Shown one piece after another: positions 26,570 to 50,333 of a stretch of DNA of 64,000 nt. The notes beneath the pieces were generated by a model, which was not told where the DNA came from, ran no database searches, and worked only from the letters and a program-made list of their open reading frames with translations. Numbering within the stretch: position 1 is the first letter of the stretch; every line of letters begins with the position of its first letter. Origin of the DNA: an uncultured Gammaproteobacteria bacterium (GTDB lineage Bacteria; Pseudomonadota; Gammaproteobacteria; JAURND01); assembly GCA_963714975.1 (NCBI GenBank), contig CAVQQD010000003.1, positions 32,001-96,000 of the forward strand. Direction: 5' to 3'. The translations under genes and the position numbers were made by a program.

Positions 26570-27832
26570 ATGGCTGATTTTACTGCTAAGTTAAACTTTA
26601 ATGGAAACGATACAGATTTGCCAGTCCATTCAGGGTCGTTAGGCCCCCGGGGTATTGATGTCAGCGCGCTTAGAAATCAAAATATATTTACTTACGACCC
26701 AGGGCTGTTGTCTACCGCGGCATGTGAATCGGCAATAACTTATATCGATGGTGACGCTGGCACTTTATTGTATCGTGGTTACCCTATTGCTGACCTAGCA
26801 GAGCACTGTGATTTTCTCGAAGTGGCTTTTTTGCTTTTCTTCGGGGAACTTCCTCAGCCGGCAGAAAAAAGCCAATTTATCCAGGAAATTGCCTCAGAGC
26901 ACGCGGTCGACTCTTCTACTTCAGCAGTGCTTTCAGCTTTTAGCAAAGATTCCCATCCCATGGCTATGCTACTGAGTTTAATGGGAGCTTTAGCCGGTTT
27001 TTACCCGGATAGAGCCAAAGATCCAGAAAGCCAAAAATTAGCAAGTTATCGAATTGTAGCCAAGATGCCGACCTTGGTGGCTACGACCTATCGGCACGCG
27101 CAGGGCCAGCCTTATTTGTCGCCCCGAGATGATTTAAATTATGCCGAAAACTTTATGTATCAGGTGTTTGCGGCTGCAGAAAAGGATGCTCCCAATCCGC
27201 TATTAGCACGAGCTTTGGATAAAATATTAATTCTTCACGCCGATCATGAGCAAAATGCTTCCACCACCACGGTCCGTACTAGTGGTTCCACCGGAGCAAA
27301 TCCCTATGCCTGTATTGCATCTGGCATCGCTGCTTTATGGGGGCCGGCACATGGCGGCGCCAATGAGGCCTGTCTGAGGATGCTGCAAGAAATAGGCAGT
27401 GAAGCTAATATCGGGCGCTATGTGGCTCGGGCGAAAGATAAAAATGATCCATTCCGTTTAATGGGCTTTGGCCATCGCGTCTATAAAAATTATGATCCTC
27501 GGGCCAAGGTCATGCGCGCCACCTGCCATGAAGTATTGGAAGAAACTGGAGTTAAAGATAGTCCGCTATTTAAGCTGGCGATGGCGCTGGAAAAAATCGC
27601 TTTAGAAGATGAGTACTTTGTGGAAAGAAAGCTTTATCCCAATGTGGATTTTTACTCTGGAGTGACCCTCAGTGCGCTTGGCTTCCCTCCTCTGATGTTT
27701 ACCGCGATTTTTGCTTTAGCTCGTACCGTGGGCTGGATGGCGCAGTGGATGGAATTATTGAGCGACCCTAATTACAAGCTGGTACGACCCCGCCAGTTGT
27801 ATACTGGGGCGGTGGAGAGGAACGTTGTCTGA
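26570..27832 (+). CDS. gltA: Citrate synthase (type II)
   Basis: [52 protein letters not shown]. Confidence 0.97.
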
Positions 27833-27846
27833 TTGCATAACCTGCT

Positions 27847-27946
27847 TTAGTGCTCAACTTATCCAAGGCGGATAGGTAGAGCACTAACACAGAAAAATTG
27901 TGTTAGTGCTCTACCTATCATATAATGATAGTACGAACACTAACGC
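27847..27946. promoter_or_regulatory. Overlapping inverted repeats upstream of ATPase gene
   Basis: Hairpin 27847-27887; perfect 21-bp IR 27871-27919; TATAAT in loop of 27900-27946. Confidence 0.65.
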
Positions 27947-27958
27947 AAGGTCTGAAGT

Positions 27959-29431
27959 ATGGTTACTAGTCTTGTTGGGCGAGATGAAGAAATTTCTACA
28001 TTGCAACGTCTTTTGGATTCAAATAAGCCGGAATTTTTGGCACTTTATGGCCGTAGGCGAGTGGGCAAAACATACTTGATTCGTCAGTTTTTTGAAAAAA
28101 AAGAGGTAATTTTCTTCAATGTAACCGGCTCTAAAAAAGGGTCACGATTGAATCAATTAAAGCATTTTACCCAGCAAATTGGGAAAGTATTTTATGGTGG
28201 TGTATCTCTTGCTGTTCCTAAAAGTTGGGATGACGCATTTGATGTTTTAACAGAAGCCATTAATAAGCAAGAAAAAAATAAAAAAATTATATTATTCTTT
28301 GATGAGTTACCTTGGATGGCGACTAAAAAATCGATGCTTTTACAGGGATTGGATTATTATTGGAATCAGTTTTGGTCTAATGATCAAAGAGTAAAGCTTA
28401 TTATTTGTGGCTCTAGTGCTTCTTGGATCATTCATAAAGTTATCAACAACAAAGGAGGATTACATAATCGAATTACGCGAAAAATTTTTTTAGAGCCCTT
28501 TACGCTTTCTGAAACACGAAAATTTTTAGAGAATCAAAAAATCCAGCTTAATAACCAACAAATTTTAATGATTTATATGGTTACGGGTGGAGTCCCTTAT
28601 TATTTATCTTATATTGAAAAAGGGTGGTCGGCGGCACAGATTATTGAGAAACTTGCATTTACTCAAAAGAGTGTTTTATTGGAAGAATTCGATAATTTAT
28701 TTTCCTCATTATTTGATCATTCGGAGATCTATATTCAATTAATAAAGGTTATTGCTAATCGACGGTATGGCATTGGGCAGCGTGAATTACTACAAAACAT
28801 TGGTACTGCGGCAATGGGTAGTATGGGTATCAATGCACTTAGGGAACTGGAAGAAACTGGTTTTATTATAAGCTTCATACCCCATTTCCATAAAAGGCAA
28901 GGTATTTATTATCGTTTAATTGACGAATATACTTATTTTTATCTCAAATGGATTGAACCCATTAAAAATACATTACAGAGAAAATCATTAGACAAAGGAA
29001 ATTGGCAAGCTATACAAAAAACACCCGAATGGCATAATTGGTTAGGATATGCTTTTGAAGCTGTGTGCTATAAACATATTTCGGTTATTCGAAAAGCACT
29101 TTCAATCAGCCCAGATGCAGTTGCTAATTCATGGCGTTATGTTCCGCGTAAGGATGAAAAATGGCGTGGCGCACAGATTGATTTATTGTTTGAGCGTAAA
29201 GACGATGCTATCACACTCTGTGAAATAAAATATAGTGACGAACCTTTTACCATCACTAAAGAATATGTAGAAAAGTTGAAGCGTAAAATAAATGTTTTTA
29301 AAGAACAAACCCGAACTAAAAAACAATTATTTCTTGCTTTTATTTCTGCTAATGGACTAAAAAATAACTATTATTCTGAAGAAATGGTTAACGGTATAGT
29401 TACTTTAGATGATTTTTTTACGGATAAATAA
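27959..29431 (+). CDS. ATPase (ATPase_2/DUF234-like) with C-terminal PD-(D/E)XK nuclease domain
   Basis: VGRDEE, YGRRRVGKT, FFDELPW, ICGS, GGVPYY, QIDLL...CEIK. Confidence 0.88.
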   Translation: MVTSLVGRDEEISTLQRLLDSNKPEFLALYGRRRVGKTYLIRQFFEKKEVIFFNVTGSKKGSRLNQLKHFTQQIGKVFYGGVSLAVPKSWDDAFDVLTEAINKQEKNKKIILFFDELPWMATKKSMLLQGLDYYWNQFWSNDQRVKLIICGSSASWIIHKVINNKGGLHNRITRKIFLEPFTLSETRKFLENQKIQLNNQQILMIYMVTGGVPYYLSYIEKGWSAAQIIEKLAFTQKSVLLEEFDNLFSSLFDHSEIYIQLIKVIANRRYGIGQRELLQNIGTAAMGSMGINALRELEETGFIISFIPHFHKRQGIYYRLIDEYTYFYLKWIEPIKNTLQRKSLDKGNWQAIQKTPEWHNWLGYAFEAVCYKHISVIRKALSISPDAVANSWRYVPRKDEKWRGAQIDLLFERKDDAITLCEIKYSDEPFTITKEYVEKLKRKINVFKEQTRTKKQLFLAFISANGLKNNYYSEEMVNGIVTLDDFFTDK

Positions 29432-29439
29432 ATAAAAGG

Positions 29440-49959: not shown

Positions 49960-49993
49960 GGAAAATAGTTAGCGTAGTGATTCAGTTATGTAT

Positions 49994-50026
49994 ATCTTAC
50001 TTTGGTAATGTTAAGTGAATATTAAA
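49994..50026 (-). promoter_or_regulatory. PmrA-like box plus -10 for giant gene 2
   Basis: tTTAATATT-ca-cTTAACATT-N7-TAAGAT. Confidence 0.72.
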
Positions 50027-50044
50027 GGGGTTGCTTGCTAATTT

Positions 50045-50264
50045 GTAATCATTCACCATATATGGACCCTCCATCTTTGTGCGTAAAAATCCTTCTCCCC
50101 TTGTGGGAGAAGGTGCCCGAAAGGGCGGATGAGGGGTAAACTTGGAATCAGCAAGGAGCATTTTGTTAGCTAAATGCTAACTGCTGCTTACCCCTCACCC
50201 GCGCGCCTTACGGCGCGGCGGCCTCTCCCACAAGGGGAGAGGCAAAATCGTGGTGAATGGTTAC
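50045..50264 (+). mobile_element. MITE-1 copy (complete)
   Basis: TIRs gtaatcattcacca / tggtgaatggttac. Confidence 0.88.
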
Positions 50265-50333
50265 GATAAAATCACGGTATTGCCTTGGCAAGAGCTTGGA
50301 GATATTTTTGAATCCAATTCCTGCTATTTTTGA
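50265..50333 (+). pseudogene. Displaced 3' end of the 29812-31008 ATPase gene
   Basis: DKITVLPWQELGDI identical in protein to 30946-30987, with synonymous differences. Confidence 0.8.

Follow-up and report, generated by a model that had tools for sequence, protein, structure and literature searches.

The window analysed here, a 64,000-nt stretch from the assembled genome of an uncultured gammaproteobacterium, carries four ATPase–nuclease genes and raises the question of how such genes come to lie between long direct repeats. All four had been tied to duplications in the original prediction. We found locus-specific flanking direct repeats for three of these four duplications (the ogt start, a 30-mer of gltA and a 46/45-nt repeat), around low-GC, single-gene inserts; the fourth, a 44-mer pair, is 19.3 kb apart, has a relic gene end as its second member and flanks nothing. 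The cassettes represent a known insertion mode with another class of cargo. Whether they were inserted by 'insertion with long target duplication' through host homologous recombination of the Campbell type, and not through a cassette-encoded activity, we regard as about evenly balanced.

Results

Single-gene inserts at ogt and gltA

The window most likely comprises two small accretion sites, one upstream of ogt and one downstream of gltA. The first holds cassette 1.

1433–1999, minus strand: ogt (O6-methylguanine DNA methyltransferase; Pfam DNA_binding_1 and Methyltransf_1N), intact; its first 54 nt (1946–1999) are the left repeat copy
2000–3335, minus strand: cassette 1, 1,336 bp, GC 0.40, with an AAA_14 + DUF4143 gene at 2010–3233 (Pfam; PADLOC PDC-S01, E = 9e-83)
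3336–3396, minus strand: right repeat copy, a decayed relic of the ogt start with a 7-nt indel and two synonymous and four amino-acid-changing codons (BLAST, sequence)

The cassette gene ends 10 nt ahead of the ogt start codon. The predicted duplication of the ogt 5′ end (1946/3336) was recovered as a direct repeat with two copies in the genome; 1946–1999 and 3336–3396 (54/61 nt) align over 54 columns with six substitutions and the 7-nt indel, and BLAST reports 85% identity over 48 nt.

The second site begins with cassette 2.

26525–27832, plus strand: gltA (citrate synthase; Pfam Citrate_synt), with the left 30-mer at 27725–27754 and a 62-nt tail at 27767–27828
27852–27882, unstranded: hairpin GCTCAACTTATCC-N5-GGATAGGTAGAGC, 19 nt past the gltA stop codon (sequence)
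27959–29431, plus strand: cassette 2 gene, ATPase_2-type ATPase, PDC-S27 (Pfam; PADLOC E = 1.7e-170)
29440–29469, plus strand: right copy of the gltA 30-mer, 30/30 identical

This near-3′ 30-mer pair (27725/29440) likewise behaves as predicted, with two copies in the genome, and encloses cassette 2 together with the last 78 bp of gltA. The foreign stretch, 27833–29439, has a GC of 0.34. A hairpin of this kind occurs at only two places in the genome, here and at 41421–41451 in cassette 3. The 62-nt gltA tail recurs at 32468–32529 and 43269–43330, in copies whose differences, read in the gltA frame, are mostly synonymous (three synonymous codon changes and one changing).

The inserts measure 1,336, 1,607–1,685 and 1,809 bp, each with one ORF and all below 20 kb, and their GC of 0.34–0.40 set against 0.47–0.50 in the flanking genes marks the window cassettes as foreign. 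The repeats have their boundaries at start or stop codons. Across the genome, BLAST finds the ogt repeat and the gltA 30-mer twice each and the 39-mer of cassette 3 in three full and two partial copies, the partial ones being flanks of paralogous regulator genes. The repeats score well beyond what chance would give: no mismatched-flank control came above 17 (maxima 14, n = 110; 12, n = 42; 17, n = 156; 15, n = 650).

Steczkiewicz et al. 2012 include DUF234, DUF1703 and DUF4143 in the PD-(D/E)XK superfamily. The window's DUF1703 protein carries a PDDEXK_9 domain (Pfam), and no DUF234 domain was detected in its ATPase_2 protein at E ≤ 0.001. Across 16 aligned DUF4143 proteins of the genome, the D...ExK and Walker motifs are conserved; the consensus has EVDF...IEVK, and a D is invariant. 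PADLOC profiles matched at full length for PDC-S01 (E = 9e-83 and 1.5e-65) and PDC-S27 (E = 1.7e-170, residues 4–487), and the window's DUF1703 gene had no PADLOC match. We treat the window ATPase–nucleases as candidate defence (anti-virus) genes.

As had been predicted, no integrase or intact transposase was found: among 52 window ORFs scanned with Pfam, the one match of this kind is a fragment, and the window has no tRNA gene.

39576–39881, minus strand: fragment of an IS605-family TnpB (OrfB_IS605) gene, 101 aa (Pfam; whole-genome family search)

The cassettes might instead have entered att-like sites through a tyrosine recombinase or transposase acting in trans from elsewhere in the genome. 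Phage_integrase-family matches number 13 in the genome and OrfB_IS605 matches 11, and a perfect 45-bp repeat encloses 5.9 kb that include one of the integrases, as in a classical island. None of these matches is an intact gene in the window, however; the repeat differs in sequence and length for every cassette, and the junctions show no core sequence in common, which leaves insertion in trans very improbable. IS605-family elements are not known to make a target duplication, which also counts against it. Because the repeats are locus-specific (two to three genome copies) and range from 30 to 420 bp, a single site-specific enzyme does not fit.

Cassette 3 lies in one copy of a segmental duplication

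31355–39279, unstranded: copy A of the duplication (BLAST, Pfam), with a response-regulator gene at 31928–32425 (plus), an uninterrupted site at 32425–32470 and the gltA-tail copy at 32468–32529
40302–50025, unstranded: copy B (BLAST, Pfam), with a response regulator at 40875–41372 (plus), cassette 3 and an intact 2,229-aa P-loop ORF at 43270–49959 (minus)
41372–41417, plus strand: left repeat copy of 46 nt, which starts at the stop codon of the response-regulator gene and is that gene's 3′ untranslated flank (sequence)
41418–43226, minus strand: cassette 3, 1,809 bp, GC 0.40 (computed over 41418–43232), with the hairpin at 41421–41451 and an AAA-ATPase_like + PDDEXK_9 (DUF1703) gene at 41474–43147 (Pfam, junctions)
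43227–43271, plus strand: right repeat copy of 45 nt, with 91% identity to the left one and followed directly by the gltA-tail copy 43269–43330

The two copies of this 8-kb duplication form a mosaic of 83–100% identity, which suggests gene conversion. In copy A, the large P-loop ORF is in two pieces (32469–36176 and 35809–39213, minus strand). The predicted 39-mer duplication (41379/43233) is a direct repeat with 37/39 identical positions (41379–41417 against 43233–43271), and it extends to 46/45 nt at 91% (41372–41417 against 43227–43271). Both cassette 3 repeats align to one copy at the copy A site, a paralogous position in the same window. The empty site proposed at 32432–32470 is indeed single-copy, but it does not represent an allele, since the site sits in copy A and the insert in copy B. 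No close relative that could supply an allelic empty site was found in the collections searched, where gltA is at most 63% identical.

The second DUF4143 gene lacks a flanking duplication

29519–29728, plus strand: high-copy, palindrome-rich repeat element of ~190 bp (MITE; BLAST)
29776–31008, plus strand: second AAA_14 + DUF4143 gene (PDC-S01; Pfam, PADLOC), whose 3′ 44-mer, 30946–30989, recurs at 50265
50265–50308, plus strand: relic 3′ end of a DUF4143 gene, reading DKITVLPWQELGDI and joined to the end of the element at 50060–50269 (sequence)

The ~190-bp element has further copies at 40092–40280 (inverted) and 50060–50269, and BLAST hits it, in full or in part, 211 times across the genome. 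The 44-mers (30946–30989 and 50265–50308) are identical at 39/44 positions. As a cassette flank, the pair (30946/50265) failed: it does not enclose the gene, its second copy adjoins the ~190-bp element, and we found no flanking duplication of the gene itself. Because all four changed codons are synonymous, we take the copy at 50265 to be what is left of the 3′ end of a different DUF4143 allele or a paralogue.

Such relics bear on the possibility that no special insertion mode operated, the repeats stemming from local paralogy (segmental or tandem duplication, gene conversion, deletion) or from mixed-strain assembly. Besides the 44-mer, the mosaic segmental duplication itself points this way, as do the response-regulator 3′ flank, present at five loci in the genome behind paralogous regulator genes, and the many flanking repeats that are tandem paralogues (an adjacent paralogue at 30/61 ORFs with a flanking-repeat score of 20 or more); the genome is, moreover, an uncultured-organism assembly in three contigs. 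The three window inserts are nevertheless sharply bounded, low in GC and unrelated to their flanks, their repeats have only two to three genome copies, and other, independent genomes show this architecture at unrelated sites. We consider it improbable that paralogy or assembly accounts for them.

Flanking duplications in this genome and others

Flanking duplications ('scars') were found at 4/41 ATPase–nuclease ORFs in this genome, compared with 10/1,725 other ORFs (p = 2e-4). Three of the four scarred ATPase–nuclease ORFs are the window's own. With these removed, the enrichment comes to 1/38 (p = 0.21), or to 2/38 (p = 0.026), so that outside the window it is weak; 36/41 family members have no scar, an extra case being counted. 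The other ten scarred ORFs include three nuclease genes (Rpn twice and TnpB), Fic-antitoxin (Fic plus HTH) genes, a Sel1 gene and dnaX with two SRP RNA genes. An Rpn-family gene at C1:315507–316442 has a 73-bp flanking duplication, and further scarred DUF4143 cassettes lie at C2:661718 and C2:602342.

Duplications span 30–420 bp across sites, and every site has a different target. These targets are unrelated (the ogt start, the gltA end, a regulator 3′ flank, pilW/pilX and rarA/crcB), with a duplication in every case. The typical repeat runs from gene end to gene end, so both neighbouring genes stay intact; one of ~330 bp covers the 3′ end of rarA and the 5′ end of crcB, another of 420 bp the pilW/pilX junction. 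The genome has 24 DUF1703 (AAA-ATPase_like + PDDEXK_9) matches; among paralogues of 66–93% amino-acid identity, no shared ends or inverted repeats were found, and nucleotide homology runs from ~10–20 nt before the start to ~16–29 nt before the stop.

Three mobile-element classes were considered and do not match. An integrase-mediated genomic island, with a tyrosine or serine recombinase gene at one end, an att core repeat and often a tRNA target, is contradicted by the lack of a recombinase Pfam match and of a tRNA in the window and by repeats that differ per site; a DNA transposon or insertion sequence, which would have conserved terminal repeats and a short duplication of fixed length, by DUF1703 homology that stops at the ORF borders and by duplications of 30–420 bp; and a homing endonuclease gene, which would have one conserved site and no target duplication, by unrelated targets and a duplication in every case.

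In other genomes, 5/41 DUF4143 loci (~12%) are scarred, against 0/52 gltA control loci (threshold score 24 or more). DUF1703 loci are scarred in at most 1/27 cases (0/11 and at most 1/16), and none of five ATPase_2 loci is.

These counts also offer a case for a self-driven process. ATPase–PD-(D/E)XK proteins might be autonomous integrase-free mobile elements whose nuclease cuts the target, perhaps by long staggered nicks, with repair installing the gene and a long duplication. The enrichment of the scar in the family and at DUF4143 loci elsewhere, the three nucleases among the ten other scarred ORFs and the conserved catalytic and Walker motifs speak for such elements. E. coli Rpn proteins are also reported to promote RecA-independent horizontal transfer (PMC5350276). 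Against them stand the lack of common ends or of a common target, the variable repeat length, the absence of the scar from 36/41 members and nearly all DUF1703 and ATPase_2 relatives, the dependence of the enrichment on the window's three cases (1/38 without them) and the equally scarred non-nuclease cargo (Sel1, Fic plus HTH, dnaX); mostly synonymous, allele-like divergence would not be expected if one target had given both copies. We think this reading unlikely, and the earlier view of the ATPase–nucleases as self-driven, homing-like cassettes finds no support in unrelated scarred cargo, mostly scarless family members, paralogues that share only the ORF and varying targets and lengths.

Divergence of the repeat copies

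Pooled over coding repeats, differences between copies fall on codon positions one, two and three as 21/18/60, a third-position bias that departs from uniformity (p = 6e-8) and from neutral decay of one copy (p = 0.003). Because 58/89 changed codons are synonymous, one repeat copy probably came in as a foreign allele. Outside the window, synonymous and changing codons number 11 and 1 in the rarA relic (no indel in 61 codons), 6 and 3 in crcB, 23 and 16 in the pilX-like gene and 9 and 6 at the pilW end. In other genomes, two loci give weak codon signals (L173, 3/2; L169, 6/7). The window's own repeats appear to add little codon evidence for an allele origin: ogt has 2/4 plus a frameshift, the gltA tail 3/1, the 30-mer is identical and the 46-mer is non-coding. 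Overall, the pattern suggests that repeat copies differ as alleles do and not as a decaying duplicate would, and this divergence elsewhere in the genome supports the original proposal that incoming DNA brings its own allele of the target.

It also weighs on in-situ duplication by host break repair, in which foreign DNA is captured at a long staggered break or by template switch, the copies being identical at first and one then decaying. Some window repeats would suit this: the 30-mer pair is identical, and the ogt relic, with two synonymous and four changing codons and a frameshift, looks like neutral decay, its changes being independent of codon position (2/2/2) and its 7-nt indel frameshifting. 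Boundaries at start or stop codons would be expected if only gene-preserving events survive. The pooled codon positions, however, reject neutral decay of one copy, the rarA relic has 11 synonymous changes to one and no indel, and the gltA-tail and DUF4143-tail relics changed almost only at synonymous sites. In-situ duplication is, in our judgement, unlikely.

Discussion

The allele-like repeat differences suggest that DNA of related strains entered by ordinary homologous recombination, and we favour a Campbell-type route, which the foreign composition, the lack of a recombinase in cis, the scar on unrelated cargo and its recurrence at DUF4143 loci in this and other genomes also favour. Donor DNA would consist of the cassette plus a short target-homologous stretch, presumably as a circle, or as a fragment already bearing the repeat; a related strain or a paralogous site would be its source. 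A single crossover with the chromosome would yield target–cassette–target. The neighbours would stay intact, and the incoming allele would account for one copy of the repeat or for a part of both. Through the repeats, the cassette could later be lost precisely or form a circle, and the same site or a paralogous one could be used again. The crossover, the circle and the source of the first donor to carry the repeats are inferred. Several points count against this route. Lengths of 30–46 bp are short for a RecA-dependent crossover; the model gives no account of how the first target–cassette–target structure arose; and a purely host-driven process leaves the PD-(D/E)XK enrichment among scarred loci unexplained.

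That enrichment is what a bolder and unlikely proposal would explain, namely that stand-alone ATPase–PD-(D/E)XK genes (DUF4143/PDC-S01 above all, perhaps PDC-S27, DUF1703 and Rpn) are widespread recombinase-free selfish genes that scar unrelated neighbours in trans. If true, it would account both for the roughly one in eight DUF4143 loci scarred across unrelated genomes and for the nuclease excess among scarred loci here.

Recombinase-free movement of defence genes by insertion with long target duplication has lacked an explanation since 2000 and has been described essentially for restriction–modification genes. Here the same scar is found on PDC-S01 and PDC-S27 genes (PADLOC candidates) and on DUF1703, Rpn, TnpB and Fic-plus-HTH genes. 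If our favoured reading is true, the spread of many small defence genes among relatives may need no mobile-element machinery, and integrase-based island finders would miss them. Among the partial texts that a literature search returned, no paper was found linking the DUF4143, DUF1703, DUF234, PDC-S01 or PDC-S27 families to target duplications.

Comparison with known systems

In Campbell-type integration, a circle with a homologous segment enters by a single crossover to give segment–insert–segment, with no dedicated recombinase and reversibly through the repeats. Native/foreign hybrid copies would fit, as the synonymous-biased divergence outside the window suggests; the homology in the window cases, by contrast, is very short (30–61 bp), and the circle is presumed.

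Integron gene cassettes rely on an attC hairpin and IntI and are arrayed at one attI. The window cassettes resemble them in being one-gene, promoter-poor units, two of which have a hairpin at one end, but there is no integron integrase nearby and no array at one attI, and the flanks are duplicated target, not attC.

Two nuclease families offer further parallels. In the sections of Siozios et al. 2019 (PMC6387759) consulted, Cardinium cCpun has ~25 AAA-ATPase_like + PDDEXK_9 paralogues of horizontal origin, with recombination among them, proposed as secreted nucleases; that is a small host-associated genome, and its ~25 DUF1703 paralogues compare with 24 matches here. Neither flanking duplications nor how the genes insert is mentioned in those sections. 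E. coli Rpn (YhgA-like, Transposase_31) genes are stand-alone PD-(D/E)XK nuclease genes tied to horizontal transfer and phage defence in the excerpts of PMC5350276 and PMC10400941 available; the family differs from the window genes, although an Rpn gene of this genome has the 73-bp flanking duplication. Rpn activity is not known to be linked with target duplications.

The closest match is the long target duplication itself. Nobusato et al. 2000 (Gene 259:99) reportedly described it for restriction–modification genes. The Helicobacter pylori precedent cited in the original prediction is real: in the text of Furuta, Abe and Kobayashi 2010 (PMC2853133) available, small restriction–modification units without mobility genes are flanked by genome-unique direct repeats of >30 bp, which have a one-copy counterpart at the empty site and in many cases include part of a neighbouring gene's end; 46-bp repeats are among the examples, and a lone mcrA nuclease gene is inserted likewise. 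The definition there is an insert of <20 kb without a mobility gene, a repeat of >30 bp that is unique in the genome, and one copy at the empty site. The window inserts share the size, the freedom from mobility genes and the repeat uniqueness; the ogt (54/61 nt) and regulator (46/45 nt) repeats exceed 30 bp, whereas the gltA 30-mer is exactly 30; and the empty site is paralogous (copy A, cassette 3 only), not allelic. The cargo differs in lacking a methyltransferase, being AAA_14 + DUF4143, ATPase_2 and AAA-ATPase_like + PDDEXK_9 in the window and Rpn, Fic plus HTH, TnpB and Sel1 elsewhere in the genome.

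Direct repeats at the cassette genes

The four cassette genes of the window encode proteins that Pfam assigns to three families, namely AAA_14+DUF4143 (two), ATPase_2 (one) and AAA-ATPase_like+PDDEXK_9, or DUF1703 (one), all included in the PD-(D/E)XK catalogue (Steczkiewicz et al. 2012). In PADLOC, both DUF4143 proteins fall into candidate class PDC-S01 and the ATPase_2 protein into PDC-S27 (E 1.7e-170, full length); the DUF1703 protein had no PADLOC match, and none of the cassette proteins had an NCBIfam match. Walker motifs and the D...ExK motif are kept in 16 DUF4143 proteins of the host genome. 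Because the GC content of the inserts (0.34–0.40) is below that of ogt, gltA and spoU (0.47–0.50), the inserts are foreign. The repeats associated with these genes are as follows.

1946–1999 and 3336–3396: start of ogt and its copy, the latter upstream of the AAA_14+DUF4143 gene 2010–3233 (cassette 1); 85% identity over 48 nt (BLAST), or at full length 54 versus 61 nt, the 54 aligned columns holding 6 substitutions, plus a 7-nt indel
27725–27754 and 29440–29469: 30-mer from the 3′ part of gltA, unchanged between copies; the right copy starts 8 nt past the ATPase_2 gene 27959–29431 (cassette 2)
41379–41417 and 43233–43271: 39-mer, 37/39 identical, growing to 46/45 nt at 91%; encloses a 1,809-bp insert with the AAA-ATPase_like+PDDEXK_9 gene 41474–43147 (cassette 3)
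30946–30989 and 50265–50308: 44-mer, 39/44 identical; 19.3 kb between copies

Each window repeat has two or three full copies across the 2.56-Mb genome. Randomly paired flanks never scored above 17 (maxima of 14, n=110; 12, n=42; 17, n=156; 15, n=650), which excludes chance as the origin of the window repeats. The original prediction had tied all four genes to duplications; the ogt, gltA and 39-mer repeats are real, but the two 44-mer copies are not placed on either side of their gene. The second 44-mer copy directly follows a high-copy repeat element of ~190 bp (211 genome matches, full or partial), still reads DKITVLPWQELGDI and has only synonymous differences (four of four changed codons). 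This copy is what remains of the 3′ end of another DUF4143 gene, either an allele or a paralogue.

The region 3′ of gltA (27.7–50.3 kb) is a succession of hairpin, PDC-S27 gene, 30-mer copy, repeat element, second DUF4143 gene, segmental copy A, TnpB fragment (39576–39881), inverted repeat element, segmental copy B, third repeat element and DUF4143 relic. The final 62 nt of gltA (27767–27828) recur at 32468–32529 and 43269–43330, adjoining the flank of a response-regulator gene, and these copies differ from gltA synonymously in 3/4 and 2/2 changed codons (gltA frame). From left to right, the pieces are the left 30-mer and 62-mer, the cassette, the right 30-mer and, after a 3-kb interval, the right 62-mer. 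This arrangement would fit an initial duplication of the gltA end (~104 bp), with later insertions breaking up the right copy.

Several neighbouring features were recorded in the window. Genes for a TacA-like antitoxin and a GNAT acetyltransferase, a TacT-like toxin–antitoxin pair (3792–4705), adjoin the ogt/DUF4143 cassette and form a small defence and addiction islet with it. A SidE phosphodiesterase domain (E 3.5e-29), which is typical of effectors from Legionella-like intracellular bacteria, is encoded by a 678-aa ORF (23593–25629) that lies downstream of approximately four tandem repeats of the 18-bp unit GTGTCATCCCGAGCGAAG (25786–25857). At 60471–62110, a gene for an MbnB/TglH/ChrH-family peptide-modifying enzyme adjoins a DUF2063 gene, suggesting a small ribosomal-peptide modification operon.

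Recombinases and element ends

Pfam found no integrase or intact transposase among the 52 ORFs of the window (20 + 32), as the original prediction had stated, and the window holds neither a tRNA gene nor an Rfam family. The whole genome has 13 Phage_integrase-family and 11 OrfB_IS605 matches. One integrase lies inside a 5.9-kb segment with a perfect 45-bp repeat at either end, and the recovery of this segment shows that the repeat scan detects classical islands.

The cassettes share no common motif at their junctions. DUF1703 paralogues are 66–93% identical as proteins, and their nucleotide homology runs only from ~10–20 nt before the start codon to ~16–29 nt before the stop; DUF4143 copies are 24–57% identical. 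A near-identical 31-nt hairpin, GCTC(A/T)ACTTATCC-N5-GGATA(G/A)GTAGAGC, marks the left edges of cassette 2 (27852–27882) and cassette 3 (41421–41451), which are unrelated (PDC-S27 and DUF1703). It is absent from the rest of the 2.56-Mb genome and from 147 other loci, and this restriction to two window sites led us to reject it as a family-wide end signal. The hairpin may act as a terminator or as a recombination signal, or may be left over from a common donor context.

Frequency of the scar in the host genome and in other genomes

Family matches over the cut-off in the host genome number 24 for DUF4143, 24 for DUF1703 and one for ATPase_2. We collected 1,770 ORFs of at least 150 aa by a simple longest-ORF rule instead of a gene finder; 41 of these carry the three families, and a further eight family matches had no ORF of this kind and were left out. 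For the 1,766 testable ORFs, the two ends, each taken as 700 bp outside plus 60 bp inside the ORF, were compared by gapped local alignment, and 61 ORFs scored at least 20. Once repeats present more than five times in the genome had been removed, along with ORFs that have an adjacent paralogue, scars remained at 4/41 family ORFs versus 10/1,725 others (Fisher p = 2e-4). The predicted enrichment of flank repeats over control ORFs holds for the genome as a whole and is weak outside the window, which supplies three of the four scarred family ORFs: without them the count is 1/38 (p = 0.21), or 2/38 (p = 0.026) if we add the DUF4143 gene at C2:602342 (contig C2), whose ~330-bp repeat extends past the flank limit and was detected by a separate k-mer scan. 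Several of these p-values are based on small counts. Two MITE-flanked genes, DUF4143 at C2:901123 and DUF1703 at C1:343840, were not counted as target duplications, their repeats having 31 and 35 copies genome-wide.

DUF4143 is present in 49 of 121 class genomes with at most 24 matches each (a tally that includes comparison genome G046), and it is expanded (10–24 matches) across many small genomes of the class. Scars were found at 5/41 DUF4143 loci elsewhere in total (~12–14%), in comparison genomes that include kin and are thus not independent. Loci retrieved with the two window proteins contributed 1/7 and 1/8, counted without a copy-number check. In the class sample, with one DUF4143 locus per genome and 26 of 29 testable, four loci scored at least 24, and three persisted after copy-number checks (L173, 141 bp; L169, ~200 bp; L172, 64 bp); L155 was dropped, its repeat being present at six dispersed places. 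The gltA control loci gave 0/52 at a score of at least 24 and 1/52 at a score of at least 20. DUF1703 is rare (8/121 class genomes), and the host genome has the largest set. DUF1703 relatives gave 0/11 scarred loci in a first set (9 of 20 dropped for short flanks) and, in a second set with 16 of 21 testable, L203 (63 bp, copy number unchecked) as the sole candidate. Four DUF1703 loci of one genome (G088) were not counted, as their repeats overlap the ORF ends of tandem paralogues. ATPase_2 relatives gave 0/5. The copy-number filter was not applied to the repeats of L127, L142 and L203.

Divergence between repeat copies

Each coding repeat pairs a copy that runs on into an intact gene with a relic copy.

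Changed codons between repeat copies (synonymous; changing)
rarA end: 11; 1
crcB start: 6; 3
pilX-like: 23; 16
pilW end: 9; 6
gltA tail (copy A): 3; 1
DUF4143 tail: 4; 0
ogt start: 2; 4, plus a frameshift

When pooled, 58 of 89 changed codons are synonymous only; a random change is synonymous in roughly a quarter of codons. Pooled differences by codon position (21/18/60) depart from uniformity (p = 6e-8) and also from a model with free decay of one copy and continued constraint on the other (p = 0.003). This synonymous excess and codon-position bias indicate that most of the divergence arose with both copies functional, that is, in different genomes. The differences agree with the original proposal that the copies diverge because incoming DNA brings its own allele of the target. 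Outside the host genome, codons were tallied for L169 and L173 only, with frames checked, and the signal is weaker (6 synonymous and 7 changing; 3 and 2).

Other cargo and re-used sites

The same scar surrounds ten non-family ORFs and is thus not specific to ATPase-nucleases.

Scarred ORFs outside the three families
Rpn/Transposase_31 gene: 73-bp repeat including the start of the next gene
Second Rpn gene: repeat is a paralogue fragment
TnpB gene: 112 bp
Fic gene with HTH partner: 101 bp
Sel1 gene: 52 bp, 51/52 identical
dnaX between two full SRP RNA genes: C2:1124419–1126836 (L209)
Four more: C2:1201006, C2:534355, C2:873950 and C2:765013

At the dnaX locus, the SRP RNA genes score 69 and 71 bits (Rfam), and each direct repeat (235–246 bp) holds an SRP RNA gene and the first ~50 nt of dnaX.

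Some insertion sites have been used repeatedly. The pilW/pilX junction occurs three times at C2:658961–663594 (L113), its copies enclosing a TnpB element (repeat of 112 bp) and, alongside it, a DUF4143 gene (repeat of 420 bp); these are two successive duplicative insertions at a single site. The second such site is the 3′ flank of a stand-alone response regulator of 165 aa, which occurs as a set of five close paralogues (70–95% identical, 3′ flank conserved) at the following positions.

31928–32470: window, copy A
40875–41417: window, copy B
C2:904995–905565: contig C2
C3:174727–175257: contig C3
C2:533567–534033: contig C2

At the Fic cassette, the duplicated sequence comprises the 3′ end of a regulator paralogue together with its flank and terminator, the same kind of target as that of cassette 3. 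With repeat-flanked cassettes at two of five flanks (DUF1703; Fic with HTH), the regulator 3′ flank looks like a recurrent landing site.

The empty site lies in a segmental duplication

The uninterrupted counterpart of the cassette 3 site, proposed as direct evidence of presence and absence, is real by alignment (32425–32470) but paralogous rather than allelic: it belongs to copy A (31355–39279) of a segmental duplication whose copy B (40302–50025) holds the cassette. The copies are a mosaic of 83–100% identity in 250-bp windows, which suggests gene conversion between them. Low-identity patches are located away from the cassette 3 site, and the 250-bp windows on either side of it are 97% identical between the copies, leading us to reject co-arrival of the cassette with a diverged flank. 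The difference would reflect either a gain of cassette 3 in copy B or its precise loss from copy A. The gltA relatives (41 genomes of the family and class; metagenome contigs) are at most 63% identical, making DNA-level comparison of allelic empty sites impossible.

The duplication also contains a 2,229-aa ORF with two P-loop regions, intact in copy B (43270–49959) and split in copy A (32469–39213), to which Pfam and NCBIfam assign no family beyond generic AAA matches. The ORF includes an in-frame palindromic repeat unit of 63 nt (35892–36085 and 46636–46828), with another copy at 51185–51247.

A proposed host-recombination route and known systems

The data fit integration by the homologous recombination of the host, acting between its chromosome and incoming DNA in which a cassette would adjoin that DNA's own allele of the target. 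A host crossover would then yield a Campbell-type insertion–duplication. Alternatively, the cassette may have been imported with its repeats already around it. The repeats would then permit a cassette to be lost precisely and homologous or paralogous sites to be used again. The fit to host recombination disagrees with the cut-and-repair by the cassette protein that had been proposed. Host recombination does not account for how a donor with repeats first arose, for homology as short as that of the window cases or for the excess of nuclease genes at scarred loci.

The host genome resembles Cardinium in its DUF1703 expansion (Siozios et al. 2019, PMC6387759); flanking repeats are unmentioned in the available text of that report. 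The window cassettes resemble the restriction–modification inserts described by Furuta et al. 2010 (PMC2853133), who report the identical type of scar for all restriction–modification types, with examples including 46-bp repeats over gene ends and a lone mcrA gene. Those cases come mostly from naturally competent species, and the authors propose a cycle of insertion, amplification via the repeats and release.
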